A stretch of 64,000 bases of DNA from Escherichia coli (GCF_050320075.1 NZ_CP190018.1), one strand, 5' to 3'. Positions 511-62,396 are shown, numbered from the stretch's first letter. Notes: generated from the sequence alone by a model not told the origin. Made by a program: numbers and translations.

Positions 511-513
511 GCA

Positions 514-741
514 TTACATGCTGTAACCGGGTTTCTTTATCAAAGCCTCCATTTGGGGCGCGATTTCGGCATCCCAGATAGCTTGCCAAGATTCTGGTTG
601 AATCTGCTGTAGAGAAATGCTTATCGAGCTATCTTTACTGTTCAGATGGCGAATAATAACGTCGGTAATATCTGCAGCAAGTGCTGCTTTTTGTTGTTCG
701 TCCAGTTCACGCGGAAAACATTTAATGTCTATGTGCGGCAT
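514..741 (-). CDS. pptA: 4-oxalocrotonate tautomerase family protein (75 aa, starts Met-Pro)
   Basis: ORF 514..780 trimmed to internal ATG at 739..741, preceded by AAGGAG Shine-Dalgarno; [11 protein letters not shown]-terminus typical of tautomerases. Confidence 0.85.
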
Positions 742-1046
742 GATTGTGCTCCTTTTGAAAGATGTCAGTAAAATTAACACACGTTGTGAATGTCGTGTGT
801 CCGGTAATGCGTTTTTACGGCAATAATGCCTACTTGAAATTGTACATATTTGTACTACACACTTTTAAATAAAGCGCCAATGAAAACGTTAACTTGCAGA
901 ATATATTCTTCGCCAACATGCCATTAAGAAAACATCAATTTCCCGGCTTGCCAATTTGTTAACGCCCATTATAGTTATTCTTGCCCTCACTAAAAATTTT
1001 CATCCGTAATTACCCCCAATAAAAATCCATTCTGGAGACGCTTAAG

Positions 1047-3023: not shown

Positions 3024-3035
3024 ATTTACTGCATA

Positions 3036-3062
3036 CCGGGCAGGTATCCTGCCCTTTTTTGG
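3036..3062 (+). terminator. rho-independent terminator after the sulfatase gene
   Basis: GC hairpin GGGCAGG-TATC-CTGCCC followed by a T run. Confidence 0.5.
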
Positions 3063-3069
3063 TTAAAAA

Positions 3070-4167
3070 ATGGCTGAACGAAGAAAAACTCATCACTCAT
3101 GGAAAACCCGCCGCGATATGGTTATTCGCGGCATGACGATTAGTTTGCCATGGTTTGCTTTTATCAATGTCAGTTTTGCATTGATAATTTTGCTGCGCCG
3201 TGTTCTGTTTAATGACCTTACTCCACCCTGGTTAAATGAAAAAAGCCTTATACATTCTATTGATATATCTGCAACGGGTATTCTGCTGATTTGCAGTGGT
3301 TTACTACTCATCCCTCGGCAAAAAACATTACCTATCCAGGTGCTATTAGTTGCCCTGAGCCTGCTATGGTCATGGTGTAGTTATCACTTTATTGCGTACT
3401 GGACGCTGCAGTTTGCTTATCCACTATGTGTATTATTAATGCTTAGTGGCGTTGTCGCACTTTATTTCCATACCCCATCATTGCTCGCATTTGTCATTCC
3501 CTTATGGTTCACCACTCCAATAGCGAGTCTTATGCTTAATCAACAGATCAATATTCATTTTGCTGTTGTATGGTGTATTTTTTCACTGGCGCTATATGGT
3601 GGGCGACTCATTTTGTTACGTTGGTTTGAAGAAGCATGGGTACAAAACAGTTATAACAACCAGTTAATTAATCGCCTTGATGCATTAGCACATCGTGATC
3701 CTTTAACTGGGATAGCAAACCGACGTGCAATGAACAGTATCTTACACGACGCGATGGATAACGGCGGGTCATTTGCTCTTATTATGCTGGATGTCGATTT
3801 TTTTAAACGTTACAACGACACTTACGGGCATCCTGCTGGGGATCGTTGTCTAATACAAGTTGCCGACGCTCTACAGCGTTCAACTCGCCAGTCGGAGGAT
3901 GTTGTTGTCCGTTATGGTGGCGAAGAGTTTGCCATCATACTTTTTAATGCAACATTGCCGGAAGCAGAGACGGTAGCAGCCAGAGTGAAGCAAGAACTTA
4001 AACTGGCAGCTATCCCACATCAGGCATCTGCTGTTAATGCATTTGTTACGGTTAGTCAGGGGATTACCTGTTCTGCTCCCGCAAAAACGGCTGAACAAAT
4101 TATTTCAGATGCCGACGCTGCGTTATACCGGGCGAAAGAAAGTGGGCGAAATCGATGGGCTTTATAA
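3070..4167 (+). CDS. membrane-anchored diguanylate cyclase (GGDEF domain, GGEEF active-site motif); start codon uncertain
   Basis: Hydrophobic multi-helix N-terminal half; C-terminal GGDEF domain with RYGGEEF and DxLTG-like motifs. Confidence 0.8.
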   Translation: MAERRKTHHSWKTRRDMVIRGMTISLPWFAFINVSFALIILLRRVLFNDLTPPWLNEKSLIHSIDISATGILLICSGLLLIPRQKTLPIQVLLVALSLLWSWCSYHFIAYWTLQFAYPLCVLLMLSGVVALYFHTPSLLAFVIPLWFTTPIASLMLNQQINIHFAVVWCIFSLALYGGRLILLRWFEEAWVQNSYNNQLINRLDALAHRDPLTGIANRRAMNSILHDAMDNGGSFALIMLDVDFFKRYNDTYGHPAGDRCLIQVADALQRSTRQSEDVVVRYGGEEFAIILFNATLPEAETVAARVKQELKLAAIPHQASAVNAFVTVSQGITCSAPAKTAEQIISDADAALYRAKESGRNRWAL

Positions 4168-5863: not shown

Positions 5864-8800
5864 CTATTCCCCCAATCATCTAACTCCGGAAAAATTTGGC
5901 TAAACGGATATAGTGGTGCCGATAATGGACGCGTACCTGGCCGCTCAGGAGGAAGTTTATCACATAACAGACCCGCAACCATCCTGTGATTACCATTAAC
6001 AATCACATTCCCATCCATATCAACCGGTGGTGCTCCACTACCATCTTCCAGCATTTGTACGTAGTGAGCTACTACGGGTACTGAGACTTTTTGTTGTACT
6101 GTCAACAAGGGACTGTTGGCCACAACCATCCTGATGTTTTCAGGTGTCGTAGGTAAACATTTAGTCTTCTCTTGACTAAAGGTATCATCCCACAATTTTG
6201 TTAAACCCATCACTGCCTGTTGTCTGTATTTATCCATGGGGTCAGCAATCAACCAAGATGGACCTGACTGCTCTATGGAATCTTCTCCGGAGAGACCCAA
6301 CGGATCTATCTTAGTAGTTGGATTCAATGGATACTGATACAGGTTCCATGCACCTCTTAGCCCAATGGGATCCTGGGTGATATACCGCCCCTGCAACGGG
6401 TCATAGTACCGGTTGCGGTTATAGTACAGCCCCGACTCCTCATCATACTGCTGCCCCGGCAGACGGTACGGCTGTTGCAGTTGCTGCGCGCTGGTTTCGC
6501 CCAGCAGGTTTCCCCACTCGTCATACTCCCCCTGCCACGCCGTTTCCCCTTCCGGGCTGATGAGCGCCTGCGGCAGCCCCCGGTGGTCGCAGTGGTAAAG
6601 ATGAAGTGTCCTCTCCGGGATGTATTCCGCCTCCATCTGGTTTTTCATCTGTTCCGCCGTCAGCCCGCACTGCTGAAGCCATGCCTCACTCTCCGCACTC
6701 ACCGCACCCGCGCGCAGTTCCCGCTCCAGCCTCCCCAGCATCACCGACAGCTCCGCCGGTAGCGTCACCCCCGTGTCCTCCTGCAACACCTCCGCCAGAC
6801 TCCGGTGCCGCGCCTTCGCCTGTTCACCATTCTCTGTTTCGATTCTGATGAGCGGCGTGAAGCTCCCCGGCTGGTATACCGTCTGGATACGCGTGGTGCC
6901 GGTCTGTACCGTCGTCAGCCTGTCACCGTCCCACCCGTACCAGGTCTCCTCCGGTTTACGCGACAGCGACATCCACCCCGTCAGGTCACGCTCCCGCCGC
7001 CACACCCGTTTCCCCGTCCGGCGGCCCAGCGGGTCATAGAGGTAGCGGCTCTCCACCTGTGGCTCGCCGTGCTGTATCCGCGTGTAGAACACCAGGCGGT
7101 GCTGGCTGTCGTAATGGTAGTGGTGCGTCCGCTCGTCGTGCATCCGTATCACCCCTTCCGGGATACGGTCCGTCTTCTCCGCCAGCCTGCCGTATTCATC
7201 GTAGCGGTAGACATAGTGCGCATCTTCCGTGATGCGGTTATCCGGCCACGCCGTGAAGGTGCTGTCCGGGTGCAGTTCCGGGTCCGGCAGCCGGTTTCCT
7301 GCCGGGTCCGTCGCATACGGGATATCGATATCCAGGTTCGCCGCCGTGGTGTGAACGCCCGTCAGTCTTCCCGTGTCGCTGTAACGGTACTTCCGGCTCT
7401 CCTGCGGGCCGCTGATGCGCACCAGTTGCCCGTTATCGTTCCACGTATACTCACGGTCAAGCTGCGGAAGGTTCAGGTGCCTGCTCCGGAGCTGCCCTGT
7501 GAGGGTGTACGCCGTGGCCTGTTCGTACCCCGCTGTACTGCCCGCCCCGCCGAAGCTGCGGGCCGTCTCACGGTGCAGCCGGTCCCGCGTGTACTCGACC
7601 AGCGGCGTTCCGCCCAGCTTCATCCCCGCAAGATAACCGCTGCCATACGTCAGCCACTCCACCGGCGGCAGACCGTCCGGCTCCTGACGGGTCGCCAGCC
7701 CCTGTTCGCTGTAGACGTGCCTCGTCTCATGCTCCCACAGCATCTCCCCCGTCTCCTGGTTCTCCACCGTCTGCCGTTCGCCCGTCAGGCGGCCTTTATC
7801 GTCATAGCCGTAGTGGACCGCCACACGGTGGCCTTCGCTCAGGTGGCTGATTTCTGTCAGCCAGCCGTGGTCGTCATACTGCCACTGCTCCGCCGGGTCG
7901 CCGTTCACCGTCCGGTGCGTGATGCGCCCGGCGTCATCGTAGTACCACTGCGTGACCTGCCCCTCATCCTCGCTGCGGATGAGCTGCCCTGTGGCGCTGT
8001 ACCGGTAACGCTGTGTCCTGCCGTCAAAGCCGCGCTGCTCCGTCAGCCTGTCCACCGGGTCATACCGGAACGTGGACTGGCTGCCGTTCTCGTTGGTCAG
8101 CACGGTGATGCGCCCGGCGGCGTCATACTCCATGCTGCGCGTCAGTCCGCCCTGCGTGGTGCTGACGGCCTTTCCCCACGCATCATACTGTGTCTCACTC
8201 CGGCTGCCGTTCGGGGCAATGATAGCGGTGAGGTCGCCTGCGGCGCTGTACTCATAACGGGTTTCACGTCCCTGCGCATCCTTCTGACTGACCAGTTGAC
8301 CACGCGGGTTATAACTGCTGTAAGTGCTGATGCCTTCCTCCCGGTGAACCGCCGTCCTCTGACCGTACCGGTCGTATTCATACCGCGTCGTGTACCCTGA
8401 ACAGTCCGTAAATGCCTGAAGCTGACCGTACCGGTTTCGCGTTATTCTCCGCCTCACCCCGGTTCCGTCTTCCACCGCACAGGGCAGGCCACTGCGGGAA
8501 GAATCATAAAACCAGCGCGTAATGTTACCGTTGCGCGAGACCTCTTCCGCCAGCCTGCCCTGACGGTCATATTTCCGGCTGCGGCGCAGCCCGTCCGGGT
8601 ACGTCACTGACGTCAGTTGCAACTGGTTGTTGTAACCATACCGTACCGTCCTGCCGTCCGGCAGTATCACTGAAGTCAGCTTTCCCGACGCCATATGCAG
8701 CCGGTACTCCGTCCGCCGTCCCGCCGCATCCGTCTGCGCCTTCAGCCTCCCCGCCTCATCATACTCGCTGCGGGTGATGCTCCCGTCCCCATACTCCTTC

Positions 8801-10071
8801 TTCACCACCCGCTTCAGGCCGCCCTCGCCCTCCGTGTACAGCACCTCCCGCCGGTTCAGGCTGTCCGTGATGGTCACGCGGTCCTGCCCGTACTCAAAGC
8901 GGTAGTCCAGCCCCTCCGGGTTGACCTGCTCCGTCACCCGACCGGTATCATCATACCGGTAGCGGCTCTCCGGCCTCCCCGCATAATGGTGCGCCACCAT
9001 CCGCCCGGCGTGCTCCGCATCATAAGTAAACCCGCGCACCTGCGTCCCGCTGCGGTCATACACCGCCCGCAGTTCTCCGCTGGCCGTGTACGTGTAGCGC
9101 GCCAGCGGCGCAGTCGGCAGTTCATCCGGGTATGCCGGGTCGTGTGTCAGCCATACCGCCTCCAGCCGGATACCGTTATCGGCACCGTACTCTGTACCGG
9201 TGGGCAGCGTGTCGGGGAAAAACTGAGAAGAGGAAACAGAACGGGGACTGGCCGGAGAAGATAAAGAAGACTCGCGCTGTTTACGGAAGGCTTTCGCCCG
9301 CTGCGCCTGTGTGGTCAGCGCCAGATGAAAACGGCGGCCCGCGCCGTCCGTCACCCCCGTCACCGCGCCCGCCGCTTCCCCCTCTGCCGCCCGGTGGAAG
9401 GCCAGCGTCCGCCCGAAGCCGTCCACCACGCCCGTCAGCACCCGGTATGCGGGCGGCTCCGGCGGCAGCACCTCGTCCGCCTCCGGCACCCGCTCCGGCC
9501 AGCCGAGTATCCACCACGGCCCCTGAAGGCTGTTTGTCGCCAGGTACACATGCGGGCTTAAGCGGAGACTCTCCGGCAGCACCTGCCAGAGCGCGCTTAG
9601 CGGCTGCGAACTGTGCTGCTCCGCCACCCCGCCCCTTGCCAGCCAGAACGACTCGCTGCGGCTGTAGCTTATCTCGCCGGGAAACAGCGGCTCAAAGTGA
9701 ATGCTCCTGCCGCCACTGTCGTTGAGTATCAGTTCCCGCTCATGAACCTGTAAGCGGATATCGAAGGGCGCTTTCCAGCCGGGACCAAACACCCCCACCG
9801 GCGCGGGTGTCCTGGTCCGGTAGCTGCTGTAGGCGCGGGAAAGAATAAACGGCAACGGGCCGGGCAGCGCAAGATCCGTCTCGCCCGGCAGCACCTTCGC
9901 ACCCAGTAGCGGGTTCACCGGGTTACCCTTCTGCTCCTCCACCGGGCTGTTGGGACACACCGAGCAGGCCACTCCCGTCGGCGCACCTATCAGCACCCCC
10001 GCTGAACCCTGCACAATATCCAGTCCCTTGCGGGTCATATCGCCCTGTCGCGCCGCCGGTTTTCCGCTCAT
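5860..10071 (-). CDS. full-length Rhs family protein: PAAR-like N-terminus, YD-repeat core, DPLGL boundary, variable C-terminal toxin domain
   Basis: 1403 aa; conserved Rhs N-terminus [13 protein letters not shown]; many YD/RYxYD repeats; PxxxxDPLGL motif; GC-rich core. Confidence 0.9.
5863..6291 (-). other. Rhs C-terminal variable toxin domain (~143 aa after DPLGL), family not recognised
   Basis: Sequence after the DPLGL motif is unrelated to the conserved core and lower in GC. Confidence 0.6.
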
Positions 10072-45389: not shown

Positions 45390-45764
45390 TACCGTTGTCT
45401 CTCTTCCAGGTTTACTCCTGATAGAAAGTCATCGGCACTTGACGGTAATTTCTTACGACCAAAAACCTCTTTGCGTCACATTTTTACAACAATTATGGCA
45501 GAGAAGAATAATGCCATTGGAATGAAGAGAGTAACGAATGATTAAACTGGCTAAACCGAATGACGAAAAATTCTGGAAAACAGCACGCAATTTCGTGAAG
45601 TGATTATTTTCGTCCCTAAGGAAACCTCATAGGATGCCTGCGGGTGCCTGAGACTTTCTGTTTTCAGGCTAACCGGGAATCAGAAAGACGAAGGCCCCGA
45701 CCGATATTTCTATCAACTGTACTGCACCCATTTTGTTGGACGATGAAATGGAATAGCCCCTAAT

Positions 45765-46286
45765 ATGTCAAAGCCAAAATACCCTTTTGAAAAGCGCCTT
45801 GAAGTCGTGAATCACTACTTCACAACTGATGATGGTTACAGGATCATCTCGGCACGTTTTGGTGTCCCCCGAACCCAGGTCAGGACATGGGTTGCCCTCT
45901 ATGAAAAACATGGAGAAAAAGGTTTAATTCCCAAACCTAAAGGCGTTAGTGCTGATCCAGAGTTGCGTATTAAGGTCGTGAAAGCTGTGATCGAGCAGCA
46001 CATGTCCCTTAATCAGGCTGCTGCTCACTTTATGCTTGCTGGTAGTGGTTCTGTAGCCAGGTGGCTGAAGGTCTATGAAGAGCGCGGAGAAGCTGGTTTA
46101 CGCGCGCTCAAGATTGGCACCAAAAGAAACATTGCAATATCAGTTGATCCAGAAAAAGCGGCATCAGCATTGGAGCTGTCAAAAGACCGACGCATTGAGG
46201 ATCTTGAAAGGCAAGTTCGATTTCTTGAAACGCGGCTTATGTATCTAAAAAAGCTGAAAGCCTTAGCTCATCCCACGAAAAAGTAA
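45765..46286 (+). CDS. insJ: IS150 OrfA (InsJ), helix-turn-helix DNA-binding protein
   Basis: 173 aa MSKPKYPFEKRLEVVNHYF. Confidence 0.85.
   Translation: MSKPKYPFEKRLEVVNHYFTTDDGYRIISARFGVPRTQVRTWVALYEKHGEKGLIPKPKGVSADPELRIKVVKAVIEQHMSLNQAAAHFMLAGSGSVARWLKVYEERGEAGLRALKIGTKRNIAISVDPEKAASALELSKDRRIEDLERQVRFLETRLMYLKKLKALAHPTKK
46277..46283 (+). other. putative programmed -1 ribosomal frameshift site (A AAA AAG) joining orfA to orfB
   Basis: Slippery heptamer at the orfA/orfB overlap, as in IS3-family elements. Confidence 0.5.
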
Positions 46287-47134
46287 AAGTACTCAACGAG
46301 CTAAGGCAGTTTTATCCTCTTGATGAGCTTCTCAGGGCTGCGGAGATACCGCGCAGTACGTTTTATTACCATCTAAAGGCTCTCAGCAAGCCTGACAAGT
46401 ATGCGGACGTTAAAAAGCGTATTGGTGAGATTTATCACGAGAATAGAGGCCGATACGGATACCGTAGGGTAACGCTGTCTCTTCATCGAGAAGGGAAACA
46501 GATTAACCATAAAGCTGTTCAGCGCCTGATGGGAACCCTCTCACTTAAAGCAGCGATTAAGGTCAAGCGATACCGCTCTTACAGAGGAGAGGTAGGGCAA
46601 ACCGCCCCTAATGTTCTCCAAAGAGATTTCAAGGCTACGCGGCCAAACGAGAAGTGGGTTACCGATGTTACTGAATTTGTAGTCAATGGGCGCAAGCTGT
46701 ATTTGTCTCCAGTAATAGATCTCTTCAACAACGAAGTTATTTCTTACAGCCTTTCGGAAAGACCAGTGATGAACATGGTTGAGAATATGCTCGATCAGGC
46801 ATTCAAAAAGCTTAATCCTCACGAGCATCCTGTTCTGCACTCTGACCAGGGATGGCAGTATCGTATGAGAAGATATCAAAATATCCTTAAAGAACATGGT
46901 ATTAAACAAAGCATGTCCAGAAAAGGCAATTGTCTGGATAATGCTGTGGTGGAGTGTTTCTTTGGAACCTTAAAGTCGGAGTGTTTTTATCTTGATGAGT
47001 TCAGTAATATAAGCGAACTGAAGGATGCTGTTACGGAATATATTGAATACTACAACAGCAGAAGAATTAGCCTGAAATTAAAAGGTCTGACTCCAATTGA
47101 ATATCGGAATCAGACCTATATGCCTCGTGTTTAA
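46283..47134 (+). CDS. insK: IS150 OrfB (InsK), DDE transposase catalytic domain, expressed as an OrfAB fusion by frameshift
   Basis: Frame open from about 46268; DDE integrase-like sequence. Confidence 0.75.
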
Positions 47135-47175
47135 CTGTCCAACTTTTTGGGGTCAGTACAAACCGAGGCCAACGA

Positions 47176-48591: not shown

Positions 48592-49593
48592 ATGAGTAAA
48601 GTTGGTATTAACGGTTTTGGTCGTATCGGTCGACTGGTGTTGCGTCGATTACTTGAAGTCAAAAGCAACATAGACATTGTCGCTATTAATGATCTCACTT
48701 CCCCAAAAATTCTCGCCTACCTGCTGAAACATGATTCAAACTATGGACCGTTCCCCTGGAGCGTTGATTTTACGGAAGATTCACTTATCGTTGATGGGAA
48801 AAGTATCGCGGTTTACGCCGAAAAAGAGGCTAAAAATATTCCGTGGAAAGCGAAAGGGGCAGAAATTATTGTCGAATGTACTGGCTTTTATACCTCCGCC
48901 GAGAAATCGCAGGCGCATCTTGATGCTGGTGCGAAGAAGGTGTTGATTTCCGCCCCTGCCGGTGAAATGAAAACTATCGTTTATAACGTCAATGACGACA
49001 CTCTGGATGGCAACGACACCATTGTTTCCGTGGCGTCATGCACCACTAACTGCCTTGCGCCGATGGCCAAAGCCTTGCACGACAGTTTCGGAATAGAAGT
49101 CGGCACGATGACGACCATTCATGCCTATACCGGCACTCAGTCACTGGTGGATGGCCCGCGTGGTAAAGATTTACGTGCTTCACGCGCAGCGGCAGAAAAT
49201 ATCATTCCCCACACTACGGGGGCGGCAAAAGCCATTGGTCTGGTGATCCCAGAACTGAGCGGCAAACTGAAAGGTCATGCGCAACGCGTGCCGGTGAAAA
49301 CAGGTTCCGTCACTGAACTGGTATCGATTCTCGGAAAAAAAGTGACTGCCGAAGAGGTGAATAACGCACTTAAACAAGCAACCACCAATAACGAGTCATT
49401 TGGTTATACCGATGAAGAAATAGTCTCTTCCGATATCATTGGCAGCCATTTCGGTTCGGTGTTTGATGCCACGCAAACCGAAATTACCGCCGTGGGCGAT
49501 TTACAACTGGTGAAAACGGTCGCCTGGTACGATAACGAATATGGCTTCGTCACGCAGCTTATTCGCACCCTCGAAAAATTCGCTAAACTCTGA
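48592..49593 (+). CDS. gapC: glyceraldehyde-3-phosphate dehydrogenase C, intact 333-aa reading frame
   Basis: NAD motif NGFGRIGR; catalytic SCTTNC. Confidence 0.85.
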
Positions 49594-51270: not shown

Positions 51271-52071
51271 TTAACGTAACGAGCGACTTTCCATCGCCTC
51301 GATGAGCACCGCATCGTGTTTCAGCGTTTGCCATGCATGGATGACTTCTGCCGGAAAATCAACGTGAACGATAAAATCTCGCCCGCGGGGACCGTAGCCA
51401 TCGCTATCATCGCGTAAACGCGGCAGCTCGCCAGTGAGTAGTGAGAGATAACGCTCAACCGGCCATAATCCTTGCAACGGATTAACAAAGATTACACTGT
51501 CTGCGTTGTTTCCTAGCTGAGGAACGAATCCGGGATAACTTAACCAGCGAGGTGCATCTGGATTGTCCCCGGTCATACGGCGGAACGTCGCCATCGTGCG
51601 CCGCTGCATGGTGGGGTCCTGAACAACGATAGCCGTATGAACTCGTTCTACGGCCTGATTCAATAGCGCGATGCTAAAGCGTGCGTTTTCACCGCAGTTT
51701 GTTGACTGGTCTTCAATCCAGATTTTTTCATGCGGAATATGCCAGAACTGATGAGCGATATCCGCCAGGATGGTGGCTTCTGCTCTGCCAGTGGTGCGGA
51801 TAGTGTTGTAGTGCGGATGCTGTGCGATAGCGCTATACAAAAAAGTTGTCGAGTGACCGATACCACCACTAATCAGTAGAGGAATTTGCTGATCGCGGGC
51901 AATCTTACATGCCGCATCGATAGTCGGCATAACCGCATTGCCTGCAAGGATCACGCAATCGGCCTGATACGGCATCTCACCGGAGAAATCATCCTGCGCC
52001 AGCCACTGTCCGATAACATTTATGGCATCTATAGTTGCCGTCGAAAGCGTCGGAAACGGGGTAATGTTCAT
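51271..52071 (-). CDS. ydcF: DUF218-domain protein YdcF
   Basis: 266 aa. Confidence 0.8.
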
Positions 52072-52186
52072 GGTTCCTCCTTATCGTTCCCTTAAGAATA
52101 CTGCGTGAGATAATAATGAGAAGCGGAGCACTCTGAAAGGAAGATGATGCTTTTTCTACCTCGCCATCGCGAACCAGACACTGGTT

Positions 52187-52564
52187 TTAGTCATACTGTA
52201 TTTGCGGAGAAACTGTTGATAAAACATCAATAACATCATTTGACGTGGCAATGACATAATGCTCGATCACATTATTTTTATAAATTTCACAACTTTGCAT
52301 AGTAAACCATGCAAAGTAGGCGGAATTCACTACTCTATAGATCCCCGTTTGGTTAATACCGTGAATTCCTGACATTCCTAACAAATCACCTTCGTCAGTA
52401 ACACGAAATGAATGTATCCAGTCAAATGATAACTTAACTTCTGACTTGATCGCCGGACATATGAGGGTAAGTTCAAGCCTGGCATTTTTATAGCTTAAAT
52501 CTGATAGTTCGGCATTTTTAAAAGACAATGAAGTCGGAGTGATATTTATAAAACATTCATCCAT
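52187..52564 (-). CDS. hypothetical small protein (125 aa), AT-rich islet gene C
   Basis: Uninterrupted ORF co-directional with the two genes upstream; no recognisable family. Confidence 0.5.
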   Translation of the reverse strand: MDECFINITPTSLSFKNAELSDLSYKNARLELTLICPAIKSEVKLSFDWIHSFRVTDEGDLLGMSGIHGINQTGIYRVVNSAYFAWFTMQSCEIYKNNVIEHYVIATSNDVIDVLSTVSPQIQYD

Positions 52565-52683
52565 GTTAATACCCCTTCATATATGAGACTGCTCTCGATA
52601 GACGACACATTAACCTTCTGCAAAAACGGTGCGAGTCTGTTTACGTACCATGTATAATCGATGGACATTACTGTGATTTGAAA

Positions 52684-53142
52684 TTACCTTGTCCAGTCAT
52701 CAACCATTTTTTTCAGGGGGAACATCTGCAATACATTCATTAATGCGAAATATAATTCCCCCTGTGGCACCCATATTCTAATCTTCTCATCCCCTAAAAT
52801 GAAAAATTGCAATTGACGTTTGAAACCTAATGTTTTATCTTCAGGTAATTCAGCTTGTATTTTTTTATTGATATCATCAAGGTAGATGTGATGACAATAC
52901 TCATCAAACATACTCATTACTTCCAGACCGTTTACAGATGTCCATCTTTGTTCACTTTCCCAATAAACAAGAACCGGTTTGCGGCAGGTATATCTGCCTA
53001 AAAAGCGCTGAATGTGTTCTTCCTGATTCTCGTAAAATATTGCCTCTGCATTCGAGATTTGCCGACGCATTCGCCAGCGGATTTTTTCTTCATAAAAAGA
53101 CAATTTGTCGCATTTGGTATTACTCAAATTCATTGTCAACAA
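52684..53142 (-). CDS. hypothetical small protein (about 150 aa), AT-rich islet gene B; start uncertain
   Basis: Uninterrupted ORF; overlaps the end of islet gene A. Confidence 0.5.
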   Translation of the reverse strand: MLTMNLSNTKCDKLSFYEEKIRWRMRRQISNAEAIFYENQEEHIQRFLGRYTCRKPVLVYWESEQRWTSVNGLEVMSMFDEYCHHIYLDDINKKIQAELPEDKTLGFKRQLQFFILGDEKIRIWVPQGELYFALMNVLQMFPLKKMVDDWTR

Positions 53143-53512
53143 CTCGCATGGTTTTAAATATAAAATTTAAAAAACCGCCAAACAAATGAAGTGAAATTTC
53201 ATACTTCTTTGCCTTATAAACAATTACCGCATCTTTAATATTACCTGCATTTTGGTTATCTATAAGTTCAGCAATATCCATAACCTGCGATAAATGTTCC
53301 ACTCCCGTAAACTCGAACCTTTTTCGTTCCCTTCCGGCTGTAAATTCATCAACATAAAGTTCTGCCGTCAATATAAAATTATACTCGGTGTGGTGACATT
53401 CCATTCTGGTTTCTACTAAAACACCATCATGCCAGATAATATTGTCTAAATTTTTCATACTATTAATCCAATCCATTACTTTCTGATAAAATTTCCTCTG
53501 GAAGTTTTTCAT
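53120..53512 (-). CDS. hypothetical small protein (130 aa), AT-rich islet gene A
   Basis: Uninterrupted ORF; first gene of the three-gene islet. Confidence 0.5.
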   Translation of the reverse strand: MKNFQRKFYQKVMDWINSMKNLDNIIWHDGVLVETRMECHHTEYNFILTAELYVDEFTAGRERKRFEFTGVEHLSQVMDIAELIDNQNAGNIKDAVIVYKAKKYEISLHLFGGFLNFIFKTMRVVDNEFE

Positions 53513-53685
53513 AGAAAGAGATTAAAGCCTGACCGACGCAATCAAGCTCTATTATTCGCTCATAATACGATCTCATTAAAATATCATGCTTACTCATTGC
53601 AATACGTCCTGTTTACCATGGGCAGAGTATGAATGTAACTTATGTAAAATAGTACCGCCCTTGCTATTTTTCAGAATTCATAAAG

Positions 53686-54755
53686 GCTGAATTTACAATC
53701 CAAGTGCAACAAAAAAAGAAGTACTCATCAACTAGAATATAATTTTGTTTCCACACAAAAACCATTTCCAAATGATGAGTACTTCCTACCGACATCTTAC
53801 AATAAACGAGCGAGAAAAGATAATGATTTTACTCGCACAGGGCAAAAAACAAGCAGAAATTGCCAAAGCACTGGGACGTAGCTCCAGCACCATTTCTCGC
53901 GAGCTGAAACGACACGCTCTAGAAAGCTACAGTGCAACGAACGCACAAAACAGCTATTTGAAGCATCGTCAAAATAGCAAAGCACAGCGCAAATTAGAGC
54001 AGCCTGAATATTTCAATTTGGTGCAAGAAAAGTTTCTGACAGAAAACTGGTCGCCCGAACAAATCAGCGCACGATTAAAATTGGAAAAATCTGAATTATC
54101 CATTAGTTATTCAACCATTTATCGTGGTATTTATTCAGGGTTGTTTGATATAGGCGAACGCAAAGCCAGTCGCAAACTGCGCCACAAAGGCAAAACACGG
54201 CATACAAAAAATCATCATGAAAAACGTGGCAAAATTCAGATATCCAACCATTTGAACGACCGTCCCATTTCGGCGCAAAATCGCAGTCGCTTTGGACATT
54301 GGGAAGCCGATACCGTACTGGGTAAAGCGGGTGGAGCTTGTTTGCTGACGCTGACGGAACGCAAAAGTCGTTTTGAGTTGGTGAAGAAAATTCCTGCCAA
54401 AAAAGCCGAAGCAGTCCAAAAAGCCATGATTGAATTGCTGGATTCACATATATTGCGGTCAATTACGCCAGACCGTGGTAAAGAATTTGCCCAACATCGT
54501 TTGGTAACAGAAGCACTGGGTGTAGAATTTTACTTCCCCGAGCCGCATCAACCGTGGACACGGGGAACGAATGAAAATACAAATGGGTTACTTCGTGAAT
54601 ACTTTCCGAAGCACCAAGACATCAATCAGTGGAGCGAAGTTGATATTCAACAGGTGATCAATAAACTGAATTTACGACCACGTAAATGTTTAGGTTGGAA
54701 AACACCTTATGAAGTTTACTTCAAAAAATCGTTGCACTTGGTTTGACAATTCAAG
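53686..54755 (+). mobile_element. ISApl1 (IS30 family), upstream copy, transposase intact
   Basis: 1070 bp; imperfect terminal inverted repeats TGAATTTACAATCCAAGTGCAAC / TGAATTGTCAAACCAAGTGCAAC (reverse complement). Confidence 0.85.
53823..54746 (+). CDS. tnpA: ISApl1 transposase (IS30 family, DDE); 307 aa from MILLAQGKKQ, alternative upstream starts at 53772/53775 possible
   Basis: HTH region LGRSSSTISRELKR; C-terminal DDE integrase core. Confidence 0.8.
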   Translation: MILLAQGKKQAEIAKALGRSSSTISRELKRHALESYSATNAQNSYLKHRQNSKAQRKLEQPEYFNLVQEKFLTENWSPEQISARLKLEKSELSISYSTIYRGIYSGLFDIGERKASRKLRHKGKTRHTKNHHEKRGKIQISNHLNDRPISAQNRSRFGHWEADTVLGKAGGACLLTLTERKSRFELVKKIPAKKAEAVQKAMIELLDSHILRSITPDRGKEFAQHRLVTEALGVEFYFPEPHQPWTRGTNENTNGLLREYFPKHQDINQWSEVDIQQVINKLNLRPRKCLGWKTPYEVYFKKSLHLV

Positions 54756-54941
54756 ATACAAATTATAAATACTCTCAAGTGTATATTCAGTATGGGATTG
54801 CGCAATGATTGCCTAATAAAATTTCTGAAATATTTCTGTATCGCATAATTTTTTATATCAGATAAATTGTACTGGATTTCTTAAAAAATTGCAGTATAAT
54901 TGCCGCAATTATCCCACCGTTTATTTTTTGAGTAGTTTCTC

Positions 54942-56567
54942 ATGATGCAGCATACTTCTGTGTGGTACCGACGCTCGGTCAGTCCGTTTGTTCTTGTGGC
55001 GAGTGTTGCCGTTTTCTTGACCGCGACCGCCAATCTTACCTTTTTTGATAAAATCAGCCAAACCTATCCCATCGCGGACAATCTCGGCTTTGTGCTGACG
55101 ATCGCTGTCGTGCTCTTTGGCGCGATGCTACTGATCACCACGCTGTTATCATCGTATCGCTATGTGCTAAAGCCTGTGTTGATTTTGCTATTAATCATGG
55201 GCGCGGTGACCAGTTATTTTACTGACACTTATGGCACGGTCTATGATACGACCATGCTCCAAAATGCCCTACAGACCGACCAAGCCGAGACCAAGGATCT
55301 ATTAAACGCAGCGTTTATCATGCGTATCATTGGTTTGGGTGTGCTACCAAGTTTGCTTGTGGCTTTTGTTAAGGTGGATTATCCGACTTGGGGCAAGGGT
55401 TTGATGCGCCGATTGGGCTTGATCGTGGCAAGTCTTGCGCTGATTTTACTGCCTGTGGTGGCGTTCAGCAGTCATTATGCCAGTTTCTTTCGCGTGCATA
55501 AGCCGCTGCGTAGCTATGTCAATCCGATCATGCCAATCTACTCGGTGGGTAAGCTTGCCAGTATTGAGTATAAAAAAGCCAGTGCGCCAAAAGATACCAT
55601 TTATCACGCCAAAGACGCGGTACAAGCAACCAAGCCTGATATGCGTAAGCCACGCCTAGTGGTGTTCGTCGTCGGTGAGACGGCACGCGCCGATCATGTC
55701 AGCTTCAATGGCTATGAGCGCGATACTTTCCCACAGCTTGCCAAGATCGATGGCGTGACCAATTTTAGCAATGTCACATCGTGCGGCACATCGACGGCGT
55801 ATTCTGTGCCGTGTATGTTCAGCTATCTGGGCGCGGATGAGTATGATGTCGATACCGCCAAATACCAAGAAAATGTGCTGGATACGCTGGATCGCTTGGG
55901 CGTAAGTATCTTGTGGCGTGATAATAATTCGGACTCAAAAGGCGTGATGGATAAGCTGCCAAAAGCGCAATTTGCCGATTATAAATCCGCGACCAACAAC
56001 GCCATCTGCAACACCAATCCTTATAACGAATGCCGCGATGTCGGTATGCTCGTTGGCTTAGATGACTTTGTCGCTGCCAATAACGGCAAAGATATGCTGA
56101 TCATGCTGCACCAAATGGGCAATCACGGGCCTGCGTATTTTAAGCGATATGATGAAAAGTTTGCCAAATTCACGCCAGTGTGTGAAGGTAATGAGCTTGC
56201 CAAGTGCGAACATCAGTCCTTGATCAATGCTTATGACAATGCCTTGCTTGCCACCGATGATTTCATCGCTCAAAGTATCCAGTGGCTGCAGACGCACAGC
56301 AATGCCTATGATGTCTCAATGCTGTATGTCAGCGATCATGGCGAAAGTCTGGGTGAGAACGGTGTCTATCTACATGGTATGCCAAATGCCTTTGCACCAA
56401 AAGAACAGCGCAGTGTGCCTGCATTTTTCTGGACGGATAAGCAAACTGGCATCACGCCAATGGCAACCGATACCGTCCTGACCCATGACGCGATCACGCC
56501 GACATTATTAAAGCTGTTTGATGTCACCGCGGACAAAGTCAAAGACCGCACCGCATTCATCCGCTGA
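54942..56567 (+). CDS. mcr-1: phosphoethanolamine--lipid A transferase MCR-1 (mobile colistin resistance)
   Basis: 541 aa; MMQHTSVWYRRSVSPFVLVAS N-terminus, five-helix membrane domain, sulfatase-like catalytic domain with the nucleophile Thr in the CGTSTAYS motif. Confidence 0.95.
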   Translation: MMQHTSVWYRRSVSPFVLVASVAVFLTATANLTFFDKISQTYPIADNLGFVLTIAVVLFGAMLLITTLLSSYRYVLKPVLILLLIMGAVTSYFTDTYGTVYDTTMLQNALQTDQAETKDLLNAAFIMRIIGLGVLPSLLVAFVKVDYPTWGKGLMRRLGLIVASLALILLPVVAFSSHYASFFRVHKPLRSYVNPIMPIYSVGKLASIEYKKASAPKDTIYHAKDAVQATKPDMRKPRLVVFVVGETARADHVSFNGYERDTFPQLAKIDGVTNFSNVTSCGTSTAYSVPCMFSYLGADEYDVDTAKYQENVLDTLDRLGVSILWRDNNSDSKGVMDKLPKAQFADYKSATNNAICNTNPYNECRDVGMLVGLDDFVAANNGKDMLIMLHQMGNHGPAYFKRYDEKFAKFTPVCEGNELAKCEHQSLINAYDNALLATDDFIAQSIQWLQTHSNAYDVSMLYVSDHGESLGENGVYLHGMPNAFAPKEQRSVPAFFWTDKQTGITPMATDTVLTHDAITPTLLKLFDVTADKVKDRTAFIR

Positions 56568-56614
56568 TTTCTCCCTGTATTTTTTCCAAACCCACCGCAC
56601 ACTCCATTCGTATT

Positions 56615-57361
56615 ATGGGCGGTGGGGTGGGGTTTGTTATGCCGTATTTATCAAATAAACGCCTACTTGCTGAGATGAGTATCGCTCTTGTCATGGCGAT
56701 CGTTGCCACGCTGACCCTTGAGCACAGTCAGATTGATCTGATGGTCGCTGATTGGTTTTATCTGGGTATGGGGCATTGGATGGTTGCCAAGCAAGCTTTT
56801 TTGCCAGATTTGCTACTGTATTCTGGACTAAAAAAGCTGCTGATGGCGATGCTGATCTACTTGCTGGTTGCGACCATTTGCCGTGCTTATCATGAGAAAA
56901 AGGGCAATGCTATCACTGCCAAGTGGCTTGTCCCAGTGACAAAATTTCGCGTGCGTGAGCTTGCGTATCTGGTGCTGACTTTGATCCTAGTGCCGACAGT
57001 TGTCGCGTCATTGAAGGCATATACTCATGTGGTCTGCCCTGTGCATTTGACGATTTTTGATGGTACGCTGCCGTATTTGCCGATGCTTGATAGTATGCGT
57101 AACACCATTCCTGATAAGTGCTTTCCTGCGGCGCATGCCAGTAGCGGATTTGCGCTGTTTGCCTTTGCGTTTGCGCCAAGTTTGCGCCGCCGTCGTGGTG
57201 CGATCATCATCGTGGTGATGGCATTGGGCTGGGCGATGGGCTGCTATAAGATGATTATTGGCGATCATTTTTTGAGCCATACGGTGGTGTCGATGATGCT
57301 TGCGTGGGCGATGTCGGCAGGGCTTGCGTGGGTGTTTTTTAAGAAGGGTGAACAAGTTTAA
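56615..57361 (+). CDS. pap2: PAP2-family membrane phosphatase (start may be 56639)
   Basis: 248-aa hydrophobic protein directly downstream of mcr-1, as in the mcr-1 cassette. Confidence 0.8.
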   Translation: MGGGVGFVMPYLSNKRLLAEMSIALVMAIVATLTLEHSQIDLMVADWFYLGMGHWMVAKQAFLPDLLLYSGLKKLLMAMLIYLLVATICRAYHEKKGNAITAKWLVPVTKFRVRELAYLVLTLILVPTVVASLKAYTHVVCPVHLTIFDGTLPYLPMLDSMRNTIPDKCFPAAHASSGFALFAFAFAPSLRRRRGAIIIVVMALGWAMGCYKMIIGDHFLSHTVVSMMLAWAMSAGLAWVFFKKGEQV

Positions 57362-57364
57362 TCG

Positions 57365-58434
57365 GCTGAATTTACAATCCAAGTGCAACAAAAAAAGAAG
57401 TACTCATCAACTAGAATATAATTTTGTTTCCACACAAAAACCACTTCCAAATGATGAGTACTTCCTACCGACATCTTACAATAAACGAGCGAGAAAAGAT
57501 AATGATTTTACTCGCACAGGGCAAAAAATAAGCAGAAATTGCCAAAGCACTGGGACGTAGCTCCAGCACCATTTCTCGCGAGCTGAAACGACACGCTCTA
57601 GAAAGCTACAGTGCAACGAACGCACAAAACAGCTATTTGAAGCATCGTCAAAATAGCAAAGCACAGCGCAAATTAGAGCAGCCTGAATATTTCAATTTGG
57701 TGCAAGAAAAGTTTCTGACAGAAAACTGGTCGCCCGAACAAATCAGCGCACGATTAAAATTGGAAAAATCTGAATTATCCATTAGTTATTCAACCATTTA
57801 TCGTGGTATTTATTCAGGGTTGTTTGATATAGGCGAACGCAAAGCCAGTCGCAAACTGCGCCACAAAGGCAAAACACGGCATACAAAAAATCATCATGAA
57901 AAACGTGGCAAAATTCAGATATCCAACCATTTGAACGACCGTCCCATTTCGGCGCAAAATCGCAGTCGCTTTGGACATTGGGAAGCCGATACCGTACTGG
58001 GTAAAGCGGGTGGAGCTTGTTTGCTGACGCTGACGGAACGCAAAAGTCGTTTTGAGTTGGTGAAGAAAATTCCTGCCAAAAAAGCCGAAGCAGTCCAAAA
58101 AGCCATGATTGAATTGCTGGATTCACATATATTGCGGTCAATTACGCCAGACCGTGGTAAAGAATTTGCCCAACATCGTTTGGTAACAGAAGCACTGGGT
58201 GTAGAATTTTACTTCCCCGAGCCGCATCAACCGTGGACACGGGGAACGAATGAAAATACAAATGGGTTACTTCGTGAATACTTTCCGAAGCACCAAGACA
58301 TCAATCAGTGGAGCGAAGTTGATATTCAACAGGTGATCAATAAACTGAATTTACGACCACGTAAATGTTTAGGTTGGAAAACACCTTATGAAGTTTACTT
58401 CAAAAAATCGTTGCACTTGGTTTGACAATTCAAG
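57365..58434 (+). mobile_element. ISApl1, downstream copy, transposase inactivated
   Basis: Co-linear with the upstream copy at a fixed offset of 3679 bp; at least two substitutions seen, including the nonsense change. Confidence 0.85.
57502..58425 (+). pseudogene. tnpA: ISApl1 transposase pseudogene, codon 10 CAA->TAA (57529..57531)
   Basis: GGCAAAAAATAAGCAGAAATT here versus GGCAAAAAACAAGCAGAAATT in the upstream copy; remainder of the frame matches copy 1. Confidence 0.8.
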
Positions 58435-58436
58435 AG

Positions 58437-58470
58437 AAAAAACCCGGCGCTAAATGCTTACCGGGTTTTA
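58437..58470 (-). terminator. rho-independent terminator of hrpA
   Basis: Hairpin CCCGG...CCGGG with flanking A and T tracts just downstream of the hrpA stop. Confidence 0.55.
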
Positions 58471-58493: not shown

Positions 58494-61400
58494 TTAACCG
58501 CTAATCTGCTCCATCGCCTGCAAAATACGCTTATCTGAAATCGGATAAGGCGTACCAAGTTGTTGAGCGAAGTAACTAACGCGCAACTCTTCTATCATCC
58601 AACGGATCTCTTTCACGTCTTCATCCTCACGACGTGCGGGCGGCAGTTTGTTGATCCATTGCTGCCACGCCTGCTGGACATTTTCGACTTTCAGCATCTG
58701 AGCACGGTCGCGATGTGGGTCAACCGCCAGTTTTTCCAGCCGTTTTTCAATCGCCTGCAAATAACGCAGCGTGTCGCCCAACCGTTTGAAGCCGTTACTA
58801 GTGACAAAACCGCGATATACCAACCCGCCCATCTGCGCTTTAATGTCAGAAAGCCCCAGCGCCATGGTCATATCCACCCGCCCTTTCAGACGTTTATTGA
58901 TATTGAACACCGCAGTAAGGATTTGCTCGACCTGCTTCGCAATATCCACCACCGTGTCGTTCAGTTCAGCGCGGACTTTTTCATGCAGCGCAGCAAAACC
59001 TTCTTCCGTCCAGACCGGGCCACCATTGGCGTCGATCAGTTGATCCACACCGCAGGAGATACAGTCGTCGATCAGCTCCAGCACTTTGCCATACGGGTTA
59101 AAGTACAGCCCCAGCTTGGCTTTGTTTGGCAACTTCTCATGCAAATATTTGATTGGCGAGGGAATATTCAGCAGCAGTAGACGGCGAAGACCGTTCCACA
59201 TTGCCTGCTTTTGTTCCAGCGGATTATCAAACAGTTTGATCGCCACGCTGTCGCGTTCATCCACTAGCGCTGGCCACGCCTTCACTTTATAGTTGCCACG
59301 CTTCTGTTCGTAGCTTTCCGGCAGCTGACCAAAACTCCAGATATGTAAGCCGCTCTGCTCGATACCGTCATCCGCCACCGCAGACAGCGTTTCCTGCACT
59401 TTGCCTTTCAGCGCATCTTTCAGATCTTGTAGAGAGCGCCCTTCTTTTAGCTTCTTGTTTTTGTCATCCACCACACGGAAGGTGATTTTCAGGTGATCGG
59501 GCACCTGATCCCAGTGCCAGTCTTCGCGGTCAACGGTGACGCCAGTCATCCGCCGTAGCTCTCGTTCAAGGCTGTCGAGCAACGGCAATTCCAGCGGTGT
59601 GACGCGGCCTAAAAAAGCTTCGGCGTAGTTTGGCGCGGGCACAAAATTACGCCGTACCGGTTTCGGCAACGATTTAATCAGAGCAATCACCAGTTCGCGG
59701 CGCAGACCGGGGATCTGCCACTCAAATCCGCTCTCCTCCACCTGGTTAAGTAACGGCAGCGGGATATGTACCGTCACGCCGTCCGCATCCGCCCCTGGCT
59801 CAAACTGATAACTCAAACGCAGCTTGAGATTGCCCTGATGCCAGAAGTTCGGGTAATCCAGCTTGCTGATCTTTTCCGCCCCTTCTTTGATCAACATGCT
59901 CTTTTCAAAGTTGAGCAAATCAGGCGTTTCGCGGCTGACTTTTTTCCACCAGCTGTCGAAGTGACGTGCGGAGATCACATCGTGGCTGATGCGCTGGTCG
60001 TAAAACTCAAACAGCGTTTCGTCATCCACCAGAATATCGCGGCGACGTGTTTTGTGTTCCAGTTCTTCCACTTCGGCCCGTAGTTTCAGGTTTTCACGGA
60101 AGAATGCGTGACGCGTCTGCCAGTCACCTTCCACCAGCGCGTGGCGAATAAAGAGTTCACGACATAACGCCGGATCGATCTGGCTGTAGTTGACCTTGCG
60201 CGCGGCAACAATCGGCAAGCCATAAACAGTGACTTTTTCCGTTGCCATCACCGCGCCCTGCGCCCGTTCCCAGTGCGGTTCGCTGTAGGTGCGTTTAATC
60301 AAATGCTGAGCAACTGGCTCCACCCATTCTGGATCGATGCGTGCCGCAATGCGCCCCCACAGGCGGCTGGTTTCTACCAGTTCCGCCACCATTACCCATT
60401 TCGGCGGCTTTTTAAATAAGCCGGAACCGGGGAAAATGGAGAAACGCGCGTTACGTGCGCCGGTATATTCTTGTTTATCGGCATCTTTCATGCCGATATG
60501 GGAAAGCAAACCGGTCAGTAAGGCGATGTGAATTTCGCGATACTCCGCCGGTTCGCTGTTAACCGGAATGCCAAGTTCTTTTACCACCTGGCGCAACTGG
60601 GTGTAGATATCCTGCCATTCGCGCACGCGCAGATAGTTGAGATAATCGGTACGACACAGGCGACGGAAAGCGTTGGAAGAAAGCGCCTTTTGCTGCTCGC
60701 CAAGATAATTCCACAGATTTACAAACGCGAGGAAGTCGGATTCTTTGTCGTGGAAGCGACGATGTTTTTCGTCCGATGCCTGCTGTTTGTCCATCGGTCG
60801 TTCGCGCGGATCCTGGATGGAGAGCGCGGACGTGATAATCATCGCCTCACGCACGCAGCCATGTTTTTGCGCTTCCAGCACCATACGCGCCAGACGAGGA
60901 TCGACAGGCAATTGCGAAAGCTGGCGACCGAGCGGCGTCAGTTTATAGGCGCTGGCCTGTTCATCAGTGGTGATCGCGCCCAGCTCTTCGAGCAGACGCA
61001 CGCCATCCTGGATATTACGTTTATCCGGTGCTTCGACAAATGGGAACGCGGCGATATCGCCCAACCCCAGCGCGGTCATCTGTAAAATAACCGAGGCCAG
61101 GTTGGTACGCAGAATCTCCGGATCGGTAAACTCCGGGCGCGAGAGGAAATCGTCTTCGGAATAGAGACGAATACAGATCCCTTCGGACACACGACCACAG
61201 CGGCCTTTACGCTGGTTGGCAGACGCCTGCGAAATGGGCTCAATCGGCAAACGCTGCACTTTGGTGCGATAGCTGTAGCGGCTGATACGCGCCGTACCTG
61301 GGTCGATAACGTATTTAATCCCCGGTACGGTCAGCGACGTTTCCGCGACGTTGGTCGCCAGCACAATGCGCCGTCCACTGTGCGACTGGAACACGCGGTT

Positions 61401-62396
61401 CTGTTCGCTGTTCGAAAGCCGCGCATAAAGCGGCAAGATTTCGGTATGGCGTAAGTTCAGCTTGTTCAGCGCATCGGCGGTATCGCGAATTTCCCGCTCA
61501 CCGCTCATAAAGATCAGAATGTCGCCGGGACTTTCCTGGCTCAGTTCGTCTACGGCGTCAAAAATCGCCTGCAACTGATCGCGCTCGGTGTCATCGGCTT
61601 CTTCAACAATCGGGCGATAGCGCACTTCCACCGGATAGGTCCGACCGGAGACTTCGATAATCGGCGCATTATTAAAGTGGCGCGAAAAGCGTTCCGGGTC
61701 GATAGTCGCGGAAGTGATAATGATTTTTAGGTCAGGACGCCGCGGTAGCAACTCTTTCAAATAGCCGAGCAGAAAATCGATATTCAGGCTGCGTTCGTGC
61801 GCTTCGTCAATAATGATAGTGTCGTACTGCATCAGCAGGCGGTCTTGCTGGATCTCCGCCAGCAGGATACCGTCGGTCATCAGCTTGACCATCGTGTTAT
61901 CACTTACGTGATCGCTGAAACGCACTTTGTAACCGATGCAACCGCCCGGCTCCGTTTTCAGCTCTTCCGCAATACGGTTCGCCACCGTTCGTGCCGCCAG
62001 GCGACGCGGCTGGGTATGGCCGATCAGCCCTTTAATCCCGCGCCCCAGTTCCATACAGATTTTCGGTAGCTGAGTCGTCTTACCGGAACCGGTTTCCCCG
62101 GCGACGATCACCACCTGGTGATCACGAATCGCTTCGAGAATGTCCTTCTTTTTCTGACTAACTGGCAAATTGTCGGGATAAGTGATTTCCGGTCGTGCCG
62201 CTTCACGCAGCAGGACTTTCCCTGCCGCCTGGTCAATCTCTTTCGCCATCTCCTGGAAAATGGCCTGTTGTGCATCAGGATTTTTAACCTTCTTCACACC
62301 GTGCAGACGGCGTAAAAAACGCTGTCTGTCGCGCAGCATCAGCGAATCCAGCCGCTGCTGCAAGGCAGTAAAGGTCAATTTTTGTTGTTCTGTCAT
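58494..62396 (-). CDS. hrpA: ATP-dependent RNA helicase HrpA (DEAH-box)
   Basis: 1300 aa; Walker A GETGSGKTTQ, DEAH motif (IIIDEAHERS), helicase C-terminal and HA2 regions. Confidence 0.9.
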   Translation of the reverse strand: MTEQQKLTFTALQQRLDSLMLRDRQRFLRRLHGVKKVKNPDAQQAIFQEMAKEIDQAAGKVLLREAARPEITYPDNLPVSQKKKDILEAIRDHQVVIVAGETGSGKTTQLPKICMELGRGIKGLIGHTQPRRLAARTVANRIAEELKTEPGGCIGYKVRFSDHVSDNTMVKLMTDGILLAEIQQDRLLMQYDTIIIDEAHERSLNIDFLLGYLKELLPRRPDLKIIITSATIDPERFSRHFNNAPIIEVSGRTYPVEVRYRPIVEEADDTERDQLQAIFDAVDELSQESPGDILIFMSGEREIRDTADALNKLNLRHTEILPLYARLSNSEQNRVFQSHSGRRIVLATNVAETSLTVPGIKYVIDPGTARISRYSYRTKVQRLPIEPISQASANQRKGRCGRVSEGICIRLYSEDDFLSRPEFTDPEILRTNLASVILQMTALGLGDIAAFPFVEAPDKRNIQDGVRLLEELGAITTDEQASAYKLTPLGRQLSQLPVDPRLARMVLEAQKHGCVREAMIITSALSIQDPRERPMDKQQASDEKHRRFHDKESDFLAFVNLWNYLGEQQKALSSNAFRRLCRTDYLNYLRVREWQDIYTQLRQVVKELGIPVNSEPAEYREIHIALLTGLLSHIGMKDADKQEYTGARNARFSIFPGSGLFKKPPKWVMVAELVETSRLWGRIAARIDPEWVEPVAQHLIKRTYSEPHWERAQGAVMATEKVTVYGLPIVAARKVNYSQIDPALCRELFIRHALVEGDWQTRHAFFRENLKLRAEVEELEHKTRRRDILVDDETLFEFYDQRISHDVISARHFDSWWKKVSRETPDLLNFEKSMLIKEGAEKISKLDYPNFWHQGNLKLRLSYQFEPGADADGVTVHIPLPLLNQVEESGFEWQIPGLRRELVIALIKSLPKPVRRNFVPAPNYAEAFLGRVTPLELPLLDSLERELRRMTGVTVDREDWHWDQVPDHLKITFRVVDDKNKKLKEGRSLQDLKDALKGKVQETLSAVADDGIEQSGLHIWSFGQLPESYEQKRGNYKVKAWPALVDERDSVAIKLFDNPLEQKQAMWNGLRRLLLLNIPSPIKYLHEKLPNKAKLGLYFNPYGKVLELIDDCISCGVDQLIDANGGPVWTEEGFAALHEKVRAELNDTVVDIAKQVEQILTAVFNINKRLKGRVDMTMALGLSDIKAQMGGLVYRGFVTSNGFKRLGDTLRYLQAIEKRLEKLAVDPHRDRAQMLKVENVQQAWQQWINKLPPARREDEDVKEIRWMIEELRVSYFAQQLGTPYPISDKRILQAMEQISG

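Follow-up and report, generated by a model that had tools for sequence, protein, structure and literature searches.

In the 64,000-nucleotide stretch of Escherichia coli DNA analyzed here (GCF_050320075.1, NZ_CP190018.1; the window, at its full length), a variable AT-rich segment of 1,544 bp lies between ydcF and the terminator of hrpA, at positions 52142-53685. This islet is probably a small heterogeneous orphan-immunity ("polyimmunity") locus, a kind of locus that is already known but whose protein families in this case are uncatalogued. Each islet protein would act on a polymorphic toxin from a competitor by binding its toxic C-terminal domain and blocking it. Among relatives, the routes of delivery are CdiA (type V secretion), Rhs/YD-repeat proteins and a Neisseria cassette. 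No toxin is encoded with the islet genes, so the carrier would be guarded against the toxins of other bacteria rather than its own.

An open reading frame (ORF) listing confirmed the three co-directional ORFs that a first-pass annotation had reported in this segment (52187-52564, 52684-53142 and 53120-53512), all on the minus strand and here called A, B and C. A truncated fourth gene, D, had been missed. In the RefSeq annotation of the identical sequence B starts at 53133 and C at 53458, giving proteins of 149 and 112 amino acids (aa), respectively. The features of the islet and its border are as follows.

52072..52141, no strand, ydcF-proximal border of the slot, 70 bp, conserved, in nearly all E. 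coli
52187..52564, minus strand, gene A, 125 aa, putative orphan immunity protein of a CdiI-type family
52684..53133, minus strand, gene B, 149 aa, Escherichia-restricted, assigned to the locus by operon position alone
53120..53458, minus strand, gene C, 112 aa, mostly-beta, predicted Imm50/PIM7 immunity fold (AlphaFold and Foldseek)
53493..53597, minus strand, remnant of gene D, about 35 N-terminal codons

Read from the hrpA side toward ydcF the gene order is D'-C-B-A, with 4 nt between D and C, an overlap of 14 nt between C and B, and 119 nt between B and A, all on the minus strand. The products are small, acidic to near-neutral (isoelectric points of 4.7 for A and 5.2 for C) and cytoplasmic, and signal peptides and transmembrane or hydrophobic segments are absent from all four (A, B, C and D). 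The AT-richness noticed at first pass was borne out, as the islet has a GC content of 35.9% versus 49.1% for the window and is its lowest-GC stretch. Along the segment the GC fraction is 0.33-0.38 versus about 0.5 in the flanks, and 0.3% of 1,544-bp segments are as GC-poor, every one of them overlapping the islet. Searches of Pfam, NCBIfam, PADLOC and PHROGs with A, B, C and D returned nothing significant (no PADLOC match at E <= 1; marginal PHROGs matches of unknown function), in agreement with the first-pass description of these small proteins as unrecognized. PDB sequence and profile searches with the A, B and C families found nothing, Rfam gave nothing above its gathering score (weak matches fall in an ISApl1 end), and a literature search on the islet RefSeq accessions and hrpA/ydcF/mcr-1 found no papers.

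Protein A and the toxin tip beside its relatives

Relatives of A were found in 55 clusters. Outside Escherichia they occur in Erwinia, Pantoea, Duffyella, Cedecea, Citrobacter, Edaphovirga and Ewingella at about 45% identity, and they share the near-invariant motifs FDWxHSFRVTDEGDLL and DVIDVLSS. In Duffyella gerundensis (three places, loci L007-L009) and in the metagenomic, enterobacterial contigs L022/L023, an A homologue starts 7 bp after a full-length CdiA gene, the upstream CdiA carrying TPS, Fil_haemagg and PT-VENN domains. Between the Duffyella and L022/L023 CdiA proteins, 77% identity is confined to the last 129 residues. In Cedecea neteri and in L024 the A homologue lies in orphan cdiA-CT/cdiI arrays (CT, C-terminal), beside CdiI_3, CdiA_C_tRNase and similar genes, and in the Cedecea array it is preceded by a frameshifted remnant of the CdiA tip.

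By tblastn, the same tip was recovered at 30-40% identity in two further settings: in Neisseria gonorrhoeae, where it closes an ORF of 150 aa in a cassette that looked maf-like, and in Enterococcus raffinosus, where it forms the C-terminus of a YD-repeat protein of 1,099 aa. An A-like ORF begins 3 nt after the former and 12 nt after the latter. These two ORFs match the hidden Markov model (HMM) of the A family with 17 and 24 bits, respectively, while the controls (neighboring ORFs and the B and C proteins) either go unreported or have negative scores. The A-partner tip, of about 100 residues, ends in ...DGR.v.vR..S..G.PTLEI....KIRY; a Pfam scan of it gave no family and a PDB sequence/profile search no match. 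It was located at these positions.

L007, 7662-7994
L022, 5661-5993
L029, 2845-3297
L030, C-terminus of 28-3327

Movement of a tip among delivery systems with the same small gene downstream is what characterizes polymorphic toxin/immunity pairs, and on this gene context protein A is a putative orphan member of that CdiI-type immunity family. The window copy of A has no toxin upstream, hence orphan; tblastn with the cognate CT against the window gave no trace of the tip, and the islet has no Pfam toxin domain.

Rhs matches were considered as the cognate toxin of A and rejected, as they have only the GGWGPEDEE linker in common, both the tip and the gene downstream being different. A stretch of about 100 nt (L022 5600-5699) is matched at about 74% DNA identity in some 100 E. 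coli genomes, mostly in annotated Rhs proteins. In the one genome examined, on which the reading of the linker in Rhs proteins rests (L032, the Rhs C-terminus of CFSAN061769), the linker ...NVGKDLTDEEK..GG..G.PGGWGPEDEE... occurs as in the CdiA proteins with the A-partner tip and is followed by a different toxin tip, which suggests a linker module common to type V and Rhs toxins. The PLSDB records NZ_CP119142.1 and NZ_CP119140.1 are N. gonorrhoeae sequences labelled as plasmids, although at 2.17 Mb they are probably chromosomes. Records of Enterococcus raffinosus, at about 1 Mb, are megaplasmid-sized. Matches of the tip to "plasmid" records are no evidence of plasmid carriage.

Proteins C, D and B

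The AlphaFold model of C, built with a nine-sequence alignment, has eight strands and one helix (predicted local distance difference test score, pLDDT, of 77.5; predicted template-modeling score of 0.70). In a Foldseek search of AFDB50 with this model, rank 2 was "Immunity protein 50 of polymorphic toxin system" (E = 1e-8, template-modeling score 0.79, 32% identity), and further Imm50-named entries were among the matches. The mostly-beta fold of C is thus one it shares with Imm50 members, which are listed as "mostly beta" with Tox-HHH and Ntox24 as partners (PMC3482391). In Salmonella pathogenicity island 6, Imm50 follows Rhs-HNH-EHHH DNase effectors (PMC10469887). Chain E of 8owu is PIM7, crystallized with the toxin PT7, which is reported to be a DNase whose active site the immunity protein occludes (bioRxiv 10.1101/2021.10.19.465003). 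Like Imm50 (PF15594) and PIM7 (8owu), C is cytoplasmic, acidic and of similar size; unlike them it fails the Pfam Imm50 HMM, is 11-13% identical to the solved structures and has no relative beside which a Tox-HHH, HNH or PT7-type toxin was found. As all nine members of the C family go unmatched by the Imm50 HMM, C is described from its model as Imm50/PIM7-like in fold and not as a member of the Imm50 family. By analogy with these pairs, the targeted toxins would most likely be nucleases, at least for C.

Escherichia and a single further enterobacterial assembly (L017, 40% identity) account for the relatives of C that were recovered, and all of these lie in the slot downstream of hrpA. A scan of species-representative genomes with the C-family alignment gave one further Escherichia locus only.

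Gene D is complete in the O157:H7-type islet, where it encodes 141 aa and the order is hrpA > D - C - B - A > ydcF. An exhaustive phmmer search with D gave 31 representatives, mostly of 170-190 aa. In a low-GC metagenomic contig (L013-L015) the D relative lies inside a long co-directional array of small genes, which holds a 58-aa Deam_C fragment with DUF6911, an HExxH-type toxin fragment, and DKNYY and DUF6708 proteins. In Neisseria zalophi, too, the relative belongs to an array, here together with Rhs/YD-shell fragments and an Imm15 gene; a weak paralogue lies two genes from it. These arrays of toxin fragments and immunity genes point toward an immunity role for the D family. The D-C pair also follows hrpA in L017 (enterobacterial, 54% GC, run SRR11408873), at 8001-9538, and therefore the position of D-C downstream of hrpA predates E. 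coli. There the gene after the pair encodes 217 aa; the protein has no relation to B, and its N-terminus resembles a signal peptide.

For B, tblastn against plasmids and phages found no match, and an HMM search over all fetched loci found Escherichia copies only. An immunity role for B would follow solely from its position, overlapped by C and lying between C and A. The first-pass annotation had likened the islet to an orphan immunity array, and this leading reading was largely right: it has direct support for A, which has toxin-adjacent relatives in three delivery systems, for C with its predicted Imm50/PIM7 fold and for the D remnant with its array context, while B joins them by its place in the operon. 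The islet proteins are predicted to neutralize toxins, C and D would each have cognate toxins, B may have a part in immunity, and the islet genes would be co-transcribed.

Alleles of the ydcF-hrpA slot, selection, and the Tn6330 insertion

Allele counts were taken from megablast searches of 5,426 complete E. coli genomes. The islet, at least 80% covered, is in 584 of them, about one in nine, and gene D is intact in 335 of these 584 (the four-gene allele of O157:H7-type strains). Instead of the islet, 4,625 genomes have a K-12-type 144-bp spacer core; another 186 have a SUKH/SMI1-KNR4 cassette in the slot. Nearly all genomes other than the 584 match the segment just in the first 70 nt or so beside ydcF. 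In the K-12-derived strain ER2683 and in E2348/69 the ydcF-hrpA spacer is 271-273 bp long and has no gene, and in the alignment the 1,544-bp islet replaces 144 bp of it, between the 70-bp ydcF-proximal block and the hrpA terminator. Accessory status had been surmised at first pass from the adjacency of hrpA and ydcF in K-12, and is confirmed.

The third allele of the slot encodes, on the opposite strand, a 164-aa protein, which Pfam assigns to SUKH/SMI1-KNR4, a classical immunity superfamily, together with a 103-aa ORF, and it retains scraps of A and B. Islet content thus varies among strains, with three slot alleles plus fusion and deletion variants. One locus (L016) retains only C and a fragment of A. 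Cluster P0054 is a D::A fusion that joins the N-terminal 70 or so residues of D to the C-terminal 40 or so of A, and therefore some strain carries a deletion that removes C and B.

Three diverged alleles, those of the window, of strain 132 (L002) and of Escherichia sp. MOD1-EC7003, were compared for the ratio of nonsynonymous to synonymous divergence (dN/dS). A, B and C are intact in all three, with dN/dS of 0.19-0.60, and third codon positions are the most substituted in eight of nine comparisons, the exception being C between the window and strain 132, with 14 substitutions. Therefore the islet ORFs are real coding genes under moderate purifying selection. For ydcF and aldA, dN/dS is 0.07 and 0.11, respectively. 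Synonymous divergence (dS) of the islet alleles is 0.06-0.25 (window versus L002 and L018), most values exceeding those that aldA (0.024) and ydcF (0.099) have in the same pair of strains, suggesting that the alleles are old or were imported or exchanged by recombination.

At lower coordinates the islet is neighbored by ydcF (51271-52071), aldA and gapC. At higher coordinates the mcr-1 transposon Tn6330 precedes hrpA (58494-62396), as follows.

about 53686..58435, plus strand, Tn6330 (ISApl1-mcr-1-pap2-ISApl1), ends good to a few bases, outside the islet
53686-54756, ISApl1, part of Tn6330
54942-56567, mcr-1, part of Tn6330
56615-57361, pap2, part of Tn6330
57365-58435, second copy of ISApl1, part of Tn6330

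Tn6330, which the first-pass annotation had rightly put at the edge of the islet, begins at 53686 and sits exactly between the islet and the hrpA terminator hairpin, with no islet ORF broken. A three-gene islet of 100% identity, with no transposon beside it, is present in strain CFSAN061763, which so represents the empty site. Tn6330 is a later, unrelated insertion at the junction of islet and terminator, and it cuts the islet genes off from any read-through transcription from hrpA. No functional connection between the islet and mcr-1 was found, and their adjacency appears incidental; that an AT-rich target attracted the transposon is a guess. The Tn6330 target, divided as AGAATTCATAAAG and AAAAAACC, resembles the terminal inverted repeat of ISApl1, TGAATTTAC / GACAATTCA (53676-53690, 58425-58440), which accounts for a spurious 17-nt BLAST overlap at the Tn6330 junctions.

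Two other differences from related strains were seen in the window. Relative to CFSAN061763 there is a 1,443-bp insertion at 45718-47160, in the trg-hokB intergenic region, with ORFs of 173 and 201 aa typical of an IS3-family element; its size and the InsJ-like 173-aa ORF fit IS150. The gapC gene (48592-49593) is intact, encoding 333 aa, in the window and in several other strains, and is annotated as a frameshifted pseudogene in a K-12 derivative.

A probable orphan-immunity locus and its alternatives

The features by which polyimmunity loci were described (PMC3482391) are found in the islet: tandem genes on one strand, small gaps, no toxin cassette and content that varies among strains. A recombinase adjoins such loci "in several cases" and is not obligatory (PMC3482391); at the islet borders there is no integrase, recombinase, tRNA-like att site or flanking direct repeat. 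The resemblance to polyimmunity loci and to the acquired interbacterial defense (AID) clusters of gut Bacteroidales (bioRxiv 10.1101/471110) lies in close-set, unrelated small immunity genes without toxin genes between them, in strain-variable content, and in the predicted protection from the toxins of other organisms, and by this analogy the AID clusters may serve as the functional model for the islet. Unlike those loci, which have up to about 19 genes, the islet has three or four, occupies a fixed slot between two core genes without adjacent recombinase or mobile-element machinery, and is composed of families of which A, B and D are in no library and C matches at the level of fold only.

Among Enterobacteriaceae the nearest precedent is a putative orphan-immunity islet on the chromosome of Salmonella Typhi (PMC7400221), with orphan genes of both the contact-dependent inhibition (CDI) type and the type VI secretion system/Rhs type. 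As there, the cognate toxins are absent from the genome and the genes were identified by the context of homologues. The Typhi islet differs in having 14 genes versus three or four, in its families and in its chromosomal location, and the ydcF-hrpA slot has an alternative SUKH allele. Orphan cdiA-CT/cdiI modules (PMC3150448) are comparable in that the A family is found as the first gene after CdiA and, in Cedecea and L024, also as part of orphan arrays that follow cdi loci. However, those modules keep a cdiA-CT fragment before each cdiI and lie beside a cdi locus, and the islet has neither.

Several observations weigh against an orphan-immunity locus. A DNA-level search of the 5,426 E. coli genomes did not detect the A-partner tip, and the Pantoea homologue of A is solitary in a variable region with no adjoining toxin. 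No recovered relative of C adjoins a toxin of any kind, including the Tox-HHH, HNH/HNH-EHHH, Ntox24 and PT7 types, and besides the failure of the Imm50 HMM noted above, C has no Pfam match even at E <= 10. Relatives of B, all at 82% identity or more, form clusters confined to Escherichia and Shigella, hhalign found no relation of B to the A and C families, and its AlphaFold model was unusable (pLDDT 39). A scan of the islet for promoters and terminators gave no signal above shuffled expectation. The remaining points are compatible with partial decay: the deletion of about 300 bp that leaves 35 or so codons of D in the window allele, the frameshifts in some B variants, the absence of the islet from about 85% of E. 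coli, and dN/dS values several-fold above those of the flanking core genes.

These last points are the substance of an alternative in which the islet is what decay has left of an ancient locus for a polymorphic toxin, situated downstream of hrpA, its resident toxin lost and its genes, no longer functional, drifting and being deleted lineage by lineage. The truncated D, the D::A fusion, the loss of all but C and part of A in L016, and the contrast of 0.2-0.6 with 0.07-0.11 in dN/dS would all fit such a history, as would a position old enough to hold D-C after hrpA in another genus and a 144-bp spacer, now the sole content of most slots, whose hrpA-side end looked partly similar to the end of the islet. 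On the other hand, three alleles at dS of 0.06-0.25 all have A, B and C intact, with dN/dS clearly below 1 and the third-position excess described above, the islet is kept in 584 genomes including the O157:H7 lineage, and a SUKH immunity gene in the same slot of 186 genomes argues for ongoing turnover over simple loss. We consider the relic unlikely; the truncation of D, the existence of variants and the relaxation of constraint leave it some weight.

That B, or possibly a D-C-B unit, serves some other function, for example in regulation or stress, and merely shares the slot with an orphan cdiI gene is quite improbable. B has neither homologues outside Escherichia nor a fold assignment, and with A set 119 nt from B while D, C and B are near-fused or overlapping, two units of different origin are conceivable. 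Against this, the overlapping C has an immunity fold in its model, the D family occurs in immunity arrays, and published polyimmunity loci likewise mix unrelated families (PMC3482391). Least probable of all, if by little, is an anti-phage defense system or toxin-antitoxin cassette of novel small proteins, a reading that the first-pass annotation had also entertained. In its favor, the islet is compact, AT-rich and accessory and has overlapping genes, and the Pantoea A homologue has neighbors with OLD-TOPRIM + UvrD and BrxC/TerB Pfam domains, which looked Gabija- and BREX-like (the system names are a reading of the domains). Yet PADLOC, Pfam, NCBIfam and PHROGs gave no significant match, neither enzymatic nor DNA-binding motifs occur in the islet proteins, and a toxin-like partner is lacking. 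The A family goes consistently with the tip of a secreted toxin rather than an intracellular one, and in structure C is matched best by immunity proteins.

Beyond an orphan-immunity locus as such, the ydcF-hrpA spacer as a whole could be a dedicated "immunity slot" of Escherichia with three alleles (empty, D-C-B-A and SUKH), working as an acquired interbacterial defense against toxins that E. coli does not encode, with A, B, D and the tip that accompanies A being new families and B founding an immunity family confined to Escherichia. Taken jointly, these claims are possible and we hold them tentatively.

Orphan immunity genes decide the survivors of contact-dependent warfare in the gut, and the islet would provide a compact and testable example in E. 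coli, including O157:H7 and a carrier of mcr-1. The A family and its tip of about 100 residues would constitute an uncatalogued toxin/immunity pair that spans three delivery systems and three phyla, and B and D add two candidate immunity families that are likewise uncatalogued. As leads, the pair of A and its toxin tip and the unexplained protein B are the most useful.

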